The translations under genes and the position numbers were made by a program. The notes below the pieces were generated by a model that ran no database searches, was not told the DNA's origin, and saw only the letters and a program-made list of their open reading frames with translations. This document shows positions 20,750 to 56,123 of a DNA stretch of 64,000 nt, in pieces; within the stretch, counting starts at the first letter, position 1, and each line of letters starts with the position of its first letter. The DNA comes from an uncultured Pseudomonadota bacterium (GTDB taxonomy: Bacteria > Pseudomonadota > Alphaproteobacteria > Rs-D84 > CACZYB01), in assembly GCA_902785275.1 (NCBI GenBank), contig CACZYB010000005.1, positions 8,865-72,864 on the forward strand. Direction: 5' to 3'.

Positions 20750-20778
20750 ACCCCCTTTTTTTTACAGGGGGTGTTTTT
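20750..20778. terminator. Bidirectional terminator
   Basis: ACCCCCT...AGGGGGT stem between convergent genes. Confidence 0.7.
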
Positions 20779-22157
20779 TACAAAGCTTTTTCACATTTTC
20801 CCGCCATCTCACTATCCTTCTTTGCCTTTGATGCTTGAAGAACAGAAAGTGCAGTCGAAGTACCACTTGTTCCTATTGTCACACCAGCTAAGATGTTGGA
20901 TGCAAGATTTAAATTCTTTTCCTTTTTCTTTCCTTCATCACTGTTATCATGACGAACATTATCACTATTTGCCATAAATGATGTTACGGTGCCGGCACCC
21001 GCAGTTGCTGTACCAATACCTGATACAATAGTGTTTGCAGTTGCAAGTTTTTTAAGGGATTGAATGTTGCTTTCATCATAACCGGTACATACGGAAAGTA
21101 TCTCACCAGCCTTAACAACTGAAGCCTTTGTTGGTTCAAACTCATCTGCCTCCGCCATTGACTTTGCCAATTTCAAATCTTTCAAAGCATTGTTACAGTC
21201 AGACATTTTTTCCGCCAACTTTGACGCATTTAAAACTGAACCAATAGATGTTCCAGTTGATACCGCAGATGTCACAGTAGCACCAGCCATAAGTCCAGTT
21301 CTTACATTACCAAAGGTTTTGGATTTTTTTTCATATAGACCTTGCAATGTTTTGCTTTTGAAATTTTCTAATGTTATAGTTTCAAGGTCAGCAATAGTTG
21401 CTCTTGTAATGCTATTTAATTTTGTTGCTATTAAAGAATTTCTTCCTGTATCAAATGAATCTTTATAGTCTTGTAAAACATATTTTAATTCATCGTATTT
21501 ATCTGAATATCTAACATCGATAAGATAATCAAGTTGTAATATCTCTTCTGCCTTTTGTGCTAAAACGCTAGTTGAAGTATTATCTTTTTGATTATAATCA
21601 TCCAAATCTTGTTTTATACTTTCTAATTTCTTTTTCCATTCATCATATTTGTTTGCATAATATTCATCAGACAATTCTATTTCTTCTGTTTTTTTATCGT
21701 TATTCTCTTTTATTGTACCAGATACCAAAGCATCAGCAGCAACCGCAGTACCCAAAGCTGATGATACAGTTGTTGCAACTGTCAAACCAAAGATAGTATC
21801 AATATTTGATTTAATACCAGAACAATAGTTTTGAACTGTACTTATTTTTGCATCTAAATCATTTTTTAATGTTTTACTAACACTTCTATATTCAGAAATT
21901 ACTGAAGGTGTATCATTAATTGTTGGTCTAGTAGCATCATCAACAGTAATATTAACAGTAGTTACTTCTGTATTATTATTTGCTTCTTTTATTTCAGTAG
22001 CAATATTGTTGTTAATATTATTAGCTTCAGTTTTTTTTACCGGTTTTGCAGACACCGCATATCTTTTGGTTTTATTTCTGTGATTACCTGCATTTACAAC
22101 ACAAATATTGCTTAATGTTAAAATTAAACTTAGTGTTAAAATAGAAACATTTCTCAT
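20778..22157 (-). CDS. Secreted hypothetical protein with duplicated Ala/Thr/Gly/Ser-rich helical hairpins
   Basis: 459 aa ORF with signal peptide, GGAAGG Shine-Dalgarno and an internal two-fold repeat. Confidence 0.8.
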   Translation of the reverse strand: MRNVSILTLSLILTLSNICVVNAGNHRNKTKRYAVSAKPVKKTEANNINNNIATEIKEANNNTEVTTVNITVDDATRPTINDTPSVISEYRSVSKTLKNDLDAKISTVQNYCSGIKSNIDTIFGLTVATTVSSALGTAVAADALVSGTIKENNDKKTEEIELSDEYYANKYDEWKKKLESIKQDLDDYNQKDNTSTSVLAQKAEEILQLDYLIDVRYSDKYDELKYVLQDYKDSFDTGRNSLIATKLNSITRATIADLETITLENFKSKTLQGLYEKKSKTFGNVRTGLMAGATVTSAVSTGTSIGSVLNASKLAEKMSDCNNALKDLKLAKSMAEADEFEPTKASVVKAGEILSVCTGYDESNIQSLKKLATANTIVSGIGTATAGAGTVTSFMANSDNVRHDNSDEGKKKEKNLNLASNILAGVTIGTSGTSTALSVLQASKAKKDSEMAGKCEKAL

Positions 22158-22183
22158 AAATTTACCTTCCCTTTTTATATATT

Positions 22184-22382
22184 AAAAAACGCCTTCGTAA
22201 ACGAAAGCGGTTGGGGGCTAGAAAACGTCATAAAGTAATACGCAAGAATGACCGTTTGTATATTGCTACACAAACACACCCCAACCTTACAGTTGGGATA
22301 CGTATTACTTTTCAAAACGAGTTTTCTAGGCTCGCATACCCTTTCGGATACTAAATTTTGCTAAAAAAATCTAACAAAACCT
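22184..22382 (-). ncRNA. Highly structured 5' leader or sRNA of unknown family, ending in an intrinsic terminator
   Basis: Three GNRA-capped hairpins with G-U pairs only on the minus strand; long-range stems CTAGAAAAC/GTTTTCTAG and AAAGTAATACG/CGTATTACTTT; terminator CGCTTTCGT-TT-ACGAAGGCG-TTTTTT. Confidence 0.7.
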
Positions 22383-22388
22383 ACGAAT

Positions 22389-22417
22389 ATAGTACTATAA
22401 AAAAATGATAAAGTCAA
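22389..22417 (-). promoter_or_regulatory. Sigma70-like promoter for the structured leader
   Basis: TTGACT-17 nt-TACTAT on the minus strand. Confidence 0.65.
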
Positions 22418-22423
22418 ATATAT

Positions 22424-22455
22424 AAAAAAACTCCCCATAAAACGGGGAGTAATTT
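22424..22455 (-). terminator. Terminator of map-ppaC
   Basis: ACTCCCC-ataaaac-GGGGAGT stem with an A run on the plus strand. Confidence 0.78.
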
Positions 22456-22472
22456 CTTCAAACTTTTTTTTA

Positions 22473-23393
22473 TTAAAGTTTTGTTTCAAGTGGTGGAACA
22501 ACTTGTTTCTTACGGCTCATCATTCCATCAACCCAAGCACAGTGTTTTTCATCACACTTAATGCCAAATACATTTTCAATCGCAGGAATATCATCTGATA
22601 CAACAAGCATTTCAGATCCTTCTTTCATAATATCTGTAATCAAAAGAAGAAGCGTGTTGTATCCGCCATCTTTGTGAAGTTTTTTCATTTCTTCTAAGAT
22701 AGCAGGTTTCTTGCTTTCAGCCATTGAACCATCGATAAGTTCTATTTGACCTATACCAAATTTTTTACCGTGGATATTGAAATCTTTGAAATCACGGTTG
22801 ATAAGGTCAAGAGCAGAGTCATTTTCAATTGAAGACTTAACCTTTAACATTTCAAGGCCAAGATCAAGAGGTTTTTCAATACCTGCAATTTTTGCAAGTT
22901 CTTCTACTGCTTTTTTATCCCATTCTGTTGTTGTAGGAGATTTGAAAAGTACAGTATCAGAAAGTACAGCACAAAGCATAGCACCAGCAACTTTTGCAGG
23001 GATATTTTTACCTTCTGTTTTGAAAATGTTTGTTATAACAGTTGAACTTGAACCAACTGGTTGACCATAAAATTCAAGTGGTGTCGCATTTTTAAGACCG
23101 CCAAGTTTATGATGATCAGCAACAAAAACAATAGATGCTTTTTCAATATCTTCAGGAAGTTGTGTTGGTTCTGTTGTATCAACCAAAGCAACAGTTTTAC
23201 CTTCAACAGAAGTTATTGTTTCAGGAATATCTAATCCAAATTTTTCAATAATGAATTTTGTTTCTGGGTTGATATCTCCTTGTTTGCATGCAATTGCATC
23301 AACTCCACGAGCTTTAAAAAGTTCAGCAACAGCAATTGTAGAAATAATTGCATCGCTATCAGGGTTTGTATGTCCAAATACATATACAGTCAT
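22473..23393 (-). CDS. ppaC: Manganese-dependent inorganic pyrophosphatase (family II, DHH)
   Basis: VFGH.NPDSD, DHH, LSDTVLFKSPTTT, DFKDF, SRKKQVVP. Confidence 0.95.
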   Translation of the reverse strand: MTVYVFGHTNPDSDAIISTIAVAELFKARGVDAIACKQGDINPETKFIIEKFGLDIPETITSVEGKTVALVDTTEPTQLPEDIEKASIVFVADHHKLGGLKNATPLEFYGQPVGSSSTVITNIFKTEGKNIPAKVAGAMLCAVLSDTVLFKSPTTTEWDKKAVEELAKIAGIEKPLDLGLEMLKVKSSIENDSALDLINRDFKDFNIHGKKFGIGQIELIDGSMAESKKPAILEEMKKLHKDGGYNTLLLLITDIMKEGSEMLVVSDDIPAIENVFGIKCDEKHCAWVDGMMSRKKQVVPPLETKL

Positions 23394-56047: not shown

Positions 56048-56123
56048 GTCCCTATCGTCTAGAGGCCTAGGACACAAGATTCTCATTCTTGCAACATGGG
56101 TTCGACTCCCATTAGGGATACCA
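56048..56123 (+). tRNA. tRNA-Glu, anticodon CTC, CCA encoded
   Basis: GTCCCTA/TAGGGAT acceptor stem, Glu-type D arm GTCTAGAGGCCTAGGAC, CAAGA-TTCTCAT-TCTTG anticodon arm, ATGGG-TTCGACT-CCCAT T arm. Confidence 0.96.

Follow-up and report, generated by a model that had tools for sequence, protein, structure and literature searches.

Putative transcription-attenuating leader RNAs with a pseudo-symmetric fold in an order of small-genome Alphaproteobacteria

Background

Three groups of described regulatory RNAs provide the closest comparison for the leader analyzed here. PyrR-dependent attenuators combine an anti-antiterminator hairpin, an antiterminator and an intrinsic terminator within a 5' leader, and contain a 5' hairpin with a purine-rich loop. 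T-box leaders are cis-acting elements that choose between a terminator and an antiterminator, apparently with termination as the default, and are present in multiple copies, dozens per genome, some of them in tandem. Pseudoknotted riboswitches, such as those of the fluoride, ZTP, preQ1 and c-di-GMP-I/II classes, possess an aptamer-sized fold with pseudoknot-type long-range pairing, and the 5' arm of their intrinsic terminator competes with an alternative helix; c-di-GMP riboswitches are also found upstream of genes for surface and secreted proteins.

Similar features recur in a family of leader RNAs, one member of which is encoded in a 64,000-nucleotide stretch of DNA (hereafter, the window) from an uncultured alphaproteobacterium with a genome of ~1.05 Mb (18 contigs). 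This leader differs from the T-boxes in its fold, which includes two loop-to-strand helices, and from the pseudoknotted riboswitches in that it matches no Rfam family. High copy numbers per genome, such as those reported below, recall T-box regulons; to our knowledge, only the T-boxes come near such density, and we know of no pseudoknotted riboswitch class that approaches it. Judging from covariance model searches, the window leader is a member of a large family in an order of Alphaproteobacteria with small (~1 Mb) genomes, and the comparative analysis indicates that the members of this family are most likely cis-acting transcription-attenuating leader RNAs that are terminator-based and of riboswitch-like complexity. 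If this is the case, a single RNA device present in dozens of copies per genome controls surface and secreted proteins together with many small transcription factors. More than 1000 natural variants are available for structural work, with an orphan effector to be found, and the family offers a handle on the regulation of the host interface in uncultured, minimal-genome bacteria of the gut and rumen.

Structural elements of the window leader

The leader is encoded on the minus strand and, including a promoter-like site, occupies positions 22184..22417 of the window (Table 1). The hairpins, promoter and terminator described in a previous sequence-only reading of this DNA were all found on that strand where they had been placed, including the outer stem CUAGAAAAC/GUUUUCUAG and the inner stem AAAGUAAUACG/CGUAUUACUUU; the P6 helix, which is absent from that description, is supported by covariation. 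The minimum free energy predicted for 22184-22390(-) is -72.7 kcal/mol, compared with -43.5 +/- 4.5 kcal/mol for 200 dinucleotide shuffles, none of which was equally stable (z = -6.43). The leader contains 38-40% G+C, a content above both the 32.6% of the entire window and the 16-23% of four other non-coding stretches in the vicinity, in line with the earlier remark that it is more GC-rich than other intergenic DNA. The G-U pairs of P1, P4 and the terminator turn into C-A mismatches on the opposite strand, so that the strand specificity of the wobbles can be read directly off the sequence and the fold.

Table 1. Elements of the leader and its downstream gene, in window coordinates and 5' to 3' order on the transcribed strand
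Element	Position	Strand	Sequence and remarks
Promoter-like site	22389..22417	-	TTGACT (22417-22412), 17-nt spacer, TACTAT (22394-22389)
P0, 5'-terminal hairpin	22352..22383	-	GUAGGUUUUGUUAG...UAGCAAAAUUUA; from predicted folds; begins near the inferred transcription start
P1	22336..22351	-	GUAUCC-GAAA-GGGUAU; preceded by conserved UUUAG; pairing in both alignments
P2 hairpin	22318..22334	-	CGAG[CCUAGAAAA]CUCG; covariation in close homologs
PK, 5' strand	22329-22322	-	P2 loop; covariation in both alignments
P3, 5' strand	22301..22311	-	AAAGUAAUACG; covariation in both alignments
P4 hairpin	22280..22297	-	CCCAACU-GUAA-GGUUGGG; strands change together between subfamilies
P4, 5' C-rich copy	22297-22291	-	CCCAACU; from alignment of close homologs
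P4, G-rich middle strand	22286-22280	-	GGUUGGG; G at 22279 also in the alternative helix
P5 hairpin	22254..22275	-	GUUUGUGUA-GCAA-UAUACAAAC; covaries; variable in sequence and length
P6 hairpin	22227..22252	-	GUCAU (22252-22248)/AUGAC (22231-22227); covariation
P3, 3' strand	22242-22232	-	CGUAUUACUUU, inside the P6 loop; covariation in both alignments
PK, 3' strand	22218..22225	-	UUUUCUAG, partner of the P2 loop; covariation in both alignments
3' C-rich copy (antiterminator strand)	22209..22216	-	CCCCAACC; can pair with GGUUGGGG (22286-22279)
Intrinsic terminator	22184..22209	-	CGCUUUCG-UUUA-CGAAGGCG + U6; stem 22209..22190
Downstream gene	20778..22157	-	459-aa protein with an N-terminal signal-like segment; family of hypothetical proteins

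The promoter-like site matches the promoter consensus at 9 of 12 positions, which is not significant when taken alone (five matches of this quality in a 2-kb region against 9.6 expected), but its placement recurs: a TTGAC-type -35 element and a -10 element are located at an equal distance from the homologous leaders, as judged by eye, and in another genus of the same order (g7) TATAAT lies directly 5' of P1. At the other end, the terminator belongs to a set of three terminator-like sites in the region where 0.8 are expected. Its U-run ends at 22184, 26 nt from the ATG at 22157, close to the distance of about 25 nt given previously. P0 has a hairpin of different sequence at its position in the homologs from the window's genus and no counterpart in the g7-type leaders. 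Just upstream of the leader promoter, at 22430-22450, there is a bidirectional-looking terminator hairpin (ACUCCCCGUUUUAUGGGGAGU followed by a U-run) that closes the upstream gene, the product of which presumably is related to family II inorganic pyrophosphatases.

The leader combines an intrinsic terminator located between the structured RNA and the ORF, with no space for a second promoter, as in attenuators generally, and a conserved, structured, aptamer-like fold with covariation, as in riboswitches.

Comparison with known RNA families

A search of the whole window against Rfam 15 at the gathering thresholds yielded a single match, the tRNA at 56048-56120, and a scan of positions 21900-22700 with permissive E-values gave no match near any cut-off. 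Permissive scans of two sets of homologous loci (15 and 20) recovered tmRNA and tRNAs only and nothing on the leaders; a genome of the same genus carries an alphaproteobacterial two-piece tmRNA. The RNA accordingly keeps the unclassified status that it had been given, no family reaching its threshold on the leader. No description of these leaders was found in the full texts searched, although preprint supplements (bioRxiv, e.g., 10.64898/2026.10.21.760802, with very many unnamed motifs) might contain one, and on these sequence and literature searches the family is apparently undescribed. Because there is no Rfam model, current annotation pipelines miss all these leaders.

The best of the weak matches over the leader itself was to the PyrR binding site (RF00515; 23.2 bits against a gathering threshold of 54, E = 0.94); two other weak matches, with lower E-values, are located upstream of the leader. 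The sequence UCCGAGAGG of the leader recalls, in our estimation, a PyrR site. We nevertheless rejected this assignment: in the sub-threshold alignment P1 falls into an unaligned insertion, off the PyrR-binding hairpin, the downstream gene encodes a signal-peptide protein rather than a pyr function, and the only PF00156 (PRTase) protein of the genome has 243 aa and is taken by us to be ComF-like. The T-box model (RF00230) produced no match at E-values up to 10 for the window leader or at 0.1 and 0.01 for the homologs, and the leader has neither a specifier loop nor a T-box sequence, and no link to amino acids is seen in the genes behind it. The c-di-GMP riboswitch models (GEMM-I and GEMM-II) did not match either, and c-di-GMP is an unlikely ligand because the leader-richest genus, g7, in which 106 of 108 genomes carry the leader, yielded no GGDEF domain in any of these 108 genomes. 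A Hfq-dependent sRNA was likewise set aside, given that Hfq (PF17209) was not found in the window genome, which is 95.7% complete, so that the absence of this and other proteins is not proven, and that the element is fused to the downstream ORF. Attenuation through a leader peptide was rejected as well, no conserved ORF being detectable in 12 leaders.

Distribution of the family

A BLAST search identified copies in other genomes of the genus and a paralog with 75% identity on contig 2 of the window genome itself, i.e., the further copy that the sequence-only reading had proposed to look for. We then relied on two covariance models. The first (R1), built from seven sequences, detected two copies in the window genome, 2-8 matches each in 11 of the 14 genomes of the genus, and matches in 14 of the 151 sampled genomes of the order. 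No match was obtained with it in 150 other genomes of the class, although R1 is weak on distant variants, as it finds the leader in 3 of the 108 g7 genomes where the second model finds it in 106. This second model (R2) was derived from three leaders of genus g7, with no sequence from the window's genus, and detected the leader in 128 of the 151 genomes of the order, including the 106 of g7. The search of the order with R2 produced more than 1100 matches when 20 candidates per genome were scored; full scoring of one genome of 1.0 Mb in two contigs (G092) yielded 46 sites. With the filters switched off, R2 recovered the window leader (22204-22373, minus strand) at 21.4 bits and an E-value of 9e-4, its sole match in the window below an E-value of 0.1. 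Since R2 recovers the window leader, the sets found by the two models represent one family. A pattern scan of metagenomes added only four close homologs.

The family varies in copy arrangement and architecture. Tandem pairs of leaders are present in G092 (C1:482137-482558, C2:77376-77769, C2:97734-98134, C1:544763-545153 and C2:54901-55304), and among the 30 loci listed for this genome two tandem pairs each share one gene, an arrangement reminiscent of tandem riboswitches. Reduced copies include L010 (G003:C37), which consists of the promoter, P0, P1 and P2 only, and L016 (G010:C7), from which P4-P5 are deleted. Conversely, long variants of ~250 nt in the window's genus (L046 from G013:C15, L045, L062 and others) have an additional domain, located after the P3 5' strand and before P4, in which there is an internal hairpin that resembles a terminator, with a U7-U10 run, and possibly a competing pairing. 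Across the other genus (L085-L120), the sequence GAAUAUAUUGAAUAA of the P5 loop hardly varies; it recurs in genus g3 and in the long variants, with plain variable hairpins in its place in the window's subfamily. This loop may be a tertiary-contact or binding site.

Conservation of the fold

Compensatory changes were evaluated in two MAFFT alignments, one of 12 close homologs (8 genomic and 4 metagenomic; not structure-fitted) and the other of 35 leaders from the other genus. In the close set, standard pairs occupy 87.4% of the 541 cells, a fraction that falls to 38-50% with the 3' partners slid over by 1-3 columns, and 23 of the 50 pairs show double changes; for the other genus, the corresponding values are 92.7% against 40-48%, with double changes in 23 of 39 pairs (171 cells). 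In neither alignment did any of 500 shuffles equal these values, a significance that is inflated by relatedness within each genus, and because of this the slid-partner control is the fairer one. The covariation proposed as a check on the sequence-only reading is therefore strong in both alignments, and the selection on the RNA that it postulated is reflected in a structure conserved via compensatory changes.

Of the long-range helices, PK has double changes in 6 of 8 pairs in the close set and 6 of 7 in the other genus; for P3, the counts are 6 of 11 in the close set and, in the other genus, 5 of 5 for its main helix and one for a single-pair helix. P5 is comparable (7/9 and 5/5), and P6 shows double changes in 3 of 5 pairs (88% of cells paired) and 2 of 4 pairs (100% paired), respectively, its variants in homologs including GCUAU/AUAGC, GUCGU/ACGAU and GCCG/CGGU. 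P1 has double changes in 4 of 8 pairs in the other genus and none in the close set, where 98.6% of its cells are paired and the changes are one-sided. For P2, there is one double change in four pairs of the close set, the closing pair being C-G in 6 and G-C in 5 of the 12 sequences, and none in the other genus. P4 lacks double changes within either set, 6 of its 7 pairs being invariant across the 12 close homologs. The hairpin CGAG[CCUAGAAAA]CUCG and the pairing of GGUUGGGG with CCCCAACC, both previously put forward as alternative folds, exist, are conserved and covary. The three GNRA hairpins emphasized in the sequence-only reading are present in the window leader, but homologs do not retain the GNRA loops of P4 or P5, and conservation of a GNRA loop is limited to P1 and to the window's genus.

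Together, these helices form a pseudo-symmetric fold in which PK joins the P2 loop to the strand 3' of P6, and P3 joins the P6 loop to the strand 3' of P2. Covariation is seen in PK and P3 as well as in the local hairpins P6 and, in the close set only, P2. The four helices represent either two simultaneous H-type pseudoknots or two states, with P2 and P6 belonging to an alternative, open one. From helix geometry, the eight pairs in a nine-base loop with a one-base linker would appear strained.

The terminator switch

The sequence-only reading interpreted the leader as a switchable attenuator, and this interpretation is partly supported. In the 12 close homologs, the antiterminator helix GGUUGGGG:CCCCAACC is paired in 96 of 96 cells and includes one compensatory change from G-C to A-U, and in 11 of the 12 the 5' arm of the terminator overlaps the 3' C-rich copy by 4-5 nt. 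For relatives whose unconstrained fold shows the terminator, its stem is lost or halved once the antiterminator is forced. The three strands involved in the switch change together across subfamilies (GGUUGGGG/CCCCAACC, GGUUGGAGG/CCUCCAACC, GGCUGGAGG/CCUCCAGCC and GGUCAGGAGG/CCUCCUGACC). A scan of 39 leader sites for the best partner of the tail anywhere upstream in the leader called a terminator at 29 sites, and at 22 of these the best partner was the 3' arm of P4; the other 7 calls were wrong by eye and, like the 10 sites without a call, were left unused. The alternative helix outweighs P4 in 20 of the 22. Among the 30 best leaders of G092, the 3' arm of P4 is the best tail partner in all 30 (-15.5 to -22.2 kcal/mol), and the tail helix beats the 5' partner every time. 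The layout of the strands is, on these alignments and predicted energies, the classical arrangement of anti-antiterminator, antiterminator and terminator.

The window copy itself fits the switch less well than its relatives. Its terminator is a different stem that overlaps the 3' C-rich copy by 1 nt, and retains 7 of its 8 pairs when the antiterminator is forced, whereas the paralog on contig 2 (L052) has the canonical overlap of 4 nt; switching in this copy is doubtful because the overlap is so short. The window leader may therefore terminate transcription largely constitutively, as a poorly switching derivative of the family.

In all 12 close relatives, the closed fold lies 10.6-19.2 kcal/mol below the antiterminator-forced fold in nearest-neighbor energies, which ignore the strain of pairing within the P2 and P6 loops. 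In the other genus (L085-L143), GGAGG occurs in the middle strand, and CUCC or CCUCC in each of the two C-rich copies; these motifs equal the Shine-Dalgarno sequence found at the downstream genes and its complement. In these leaders, the tail could mask the true ribosome-binding site, or the strand could mimic one.

Genes downstream of the leaders

The gene behind the window leader encodes a protein without a Pfam family above the cut-off but with at least 186 homologs at E <= 0.001 among the candidates scored. Among the 120 homologs listed, few are named, all as 'hypothetical', with no Pfam domains recorded, and the labels are those of alphaproteobacterial metagenome-assembled genomes. The description of the element as the leader of a secreted-protein gene agrees with the presence of its own promoter and a terminator directly 5' of the Shine-Dalgarno sequence and ATG of a signal-peptide ORF. 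This order of elements, leader, terminator, Shine-Dalgarno sequence and ATG, with no space for a second promoter, is common to all loci that were read; in 23 of 30 loci of G092, the distance from the end of the model to the ATG is 39-49 nt.

In the window's genus, the downstream products are signal-peptide proteins, small membrane proteins and one P-loop protein, nearly none of them with a Pfam family. In addition, the long leader variants precede paralogous, cysteine-rich secreted proteins of 118-142 aa with the motifs YCVP, YYD and C..C..G[ST][FY]. Of the 30 best loci in G092, 16 precede proteins with signal-like N-termini, including two matches to outer membrane beta-barrels, one of them above the Pfam cut-off; 10 are followed by small proteins (63-117 aa) of the XRE-type HTH or HTH-like class, and 4 are without a called ORF. 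In a further case (L072/L086, from G123:C2), the small HTH ORF behind the leader is broken at a run of eight G, which may reflect an assembly error or a tract prone to slippage; the leader cassette in G123 is located between rpsO and pnp.

In four sequencing runs, the Logan contigs do not cover 22072-22288, and the contigs, being short, are uninformative on transcript ends or levels. One metatranscriptome contig of 124 nt overlaps 22315-22353 and then diverges from the window; it therefore comes from a related leader and speaks neither for nor against transcription of the window locus.

Proposed mechanism and alternatives

Based on the conserved helices and the competition between strands, we propose the following model. 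The transcript would start a few bases past the leader's own promoter and fold P0 and P1; PK and P3 would then form and close a junction bearing the hairpins P4 and P5. Two partners are available to the G-rich 3' arm of P4, namely the adjacent 5' C-rich copy, which gives P4, and the second C-rich copy, which pairs more strongly, gives the antiterminator and extends into the 5' arm of the terminator. In the closed state (PK, P3 and P4), the second C-rich copy would be left free, the terminator would form and the gene would be off; when closure fails, P2 and P6 would persist, the antiterminator would form and RNA polymerase would read through into the gene.

Closure might be set by a small-molecule or ion ligand that stabilizes the closed junction, making the leader an OFF riboswitch, a tentative suggestion that we nonetheless rank first, and the need for a small ligand is in doubt because the closed fold is already favored and, in the window leader, its long-range helices amount to ~20 bp. 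Alternatively, termination could be the default, with a trans-acting protein or RNA that opens the closed junction or blocks its closure and so favors the antiterminator, having bound the conserved 5' module (P1-P2) or one of the C-rich or G-rich strands. The logic of such factor-dependent antitermination recalls the T-box, PyrR and BglG/RAT systems, and it would be in keeping with the predicted stability of the closed fold without a ligand, with the conservation of the 5' module UUUAGUAUCNGAGANGAUACGGGAG in sequence across leaders with differing 3' parts, with a non-metabolic regulon and with up to 46 copies per genome. We regard it all the same as somewhat less likely than a ligand: no NusG paralog, CsrA, Hfq or PyrR-like protein was found as a candidate factor in the window genome (95.7% complete), which encodes one NusG; the small HTH protein of the other genus was not found there with one query; no specifier-like variable loop tracks the class of the downstream gene; and the sequence of P1 differs between genera. 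As for control by an antisense RNA of the type known for symE or phage antirepressors, which had been offered as one form of the attenuator, we detected no sign of it, and the would-be target helices vary freely between paralogs.

Two further explanations dispense with attenuation as the main function. The terminated RNA of ~200 nt could itself be the product, with read-through into the gene being secondary, as a stand-alone or dual-function sRNA, for example one whose exposed CCUCC-like tail or GGAGG-like strand acts in trans on ribosome-binding sites. The strong terminator of the window copy, coupled to the switch by 1 nt only, and the resemblance of the middle strand and tail of the other genus to the local Shine-Dalgarno sequence (GGAGG) and to CCUCC would suit such a role, and sRNAs derived from riboswitches are on record (PMC9373788). 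Nevertheless, an sRNA, which the sequence-only reading had allowed for, appears improbable as the main role because the examined loci, in each of which the element directly precedes a Shine-Dalgarno sequence and ATG, have no space for another promoter; moreover, the overlap of terminator and antiterminator kept in 11 of 12 relatives would be purposeless in a pure sRNA, and Hfq was not found in the window genome. The many dispersed copies per genome, some in tandem, could also suggest a repeated DNA element, such as a mobile promoter cassette or a MITE-like element, the stems being inverted repeats without RNA function. This we consider very improbable: nested and crossing helices keep their pairing by compensatory change while loops and stems differ between copies, the wobble pairs are strand-specific, the copies keep a constant orientation and spacing relative to the downstream ORF, and the loci read show neither terminal repeats nor a transposase.

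Returning to the cis-acting attenuator that we favor, the signal it responds to is probably global rather than a pathway metabolite because the family controls secreted and outer membrane proteins and many small XRE-type regulators. It is conceivable, and we put this forward tentatively, that these leaders are global RNA sensors of a new class, acting as riboswitches for an unrecognized signal or, in the manner of T-boxes, as receptors of a cellular macromolecule. Should this be correct, one type of sensor, with 46 sites in a 1-Mb genome, would control a sizeable fraction of the genes in an order of uncultured gut and rumen Alphaproteobacteria, its targets being the secreted and outer membrane proteome and a battery of small XRE regulators; the device would join the pseudo-symmetric fold, with its two loop-to-strand helices, to a terminator switch made of three strands. 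Among candidate signals, (p)ppGpp is possible because RelA/SpoT is present, as one protein, in the window genome.

The window genome also encodes one GGDEF protein. Across the order, GGDEF domains were found in 17 of the 18 genomes that belong to the same family as the window genome and in 0 of 122 genomes of family f4, a sharp difference in second messengers inside one order.
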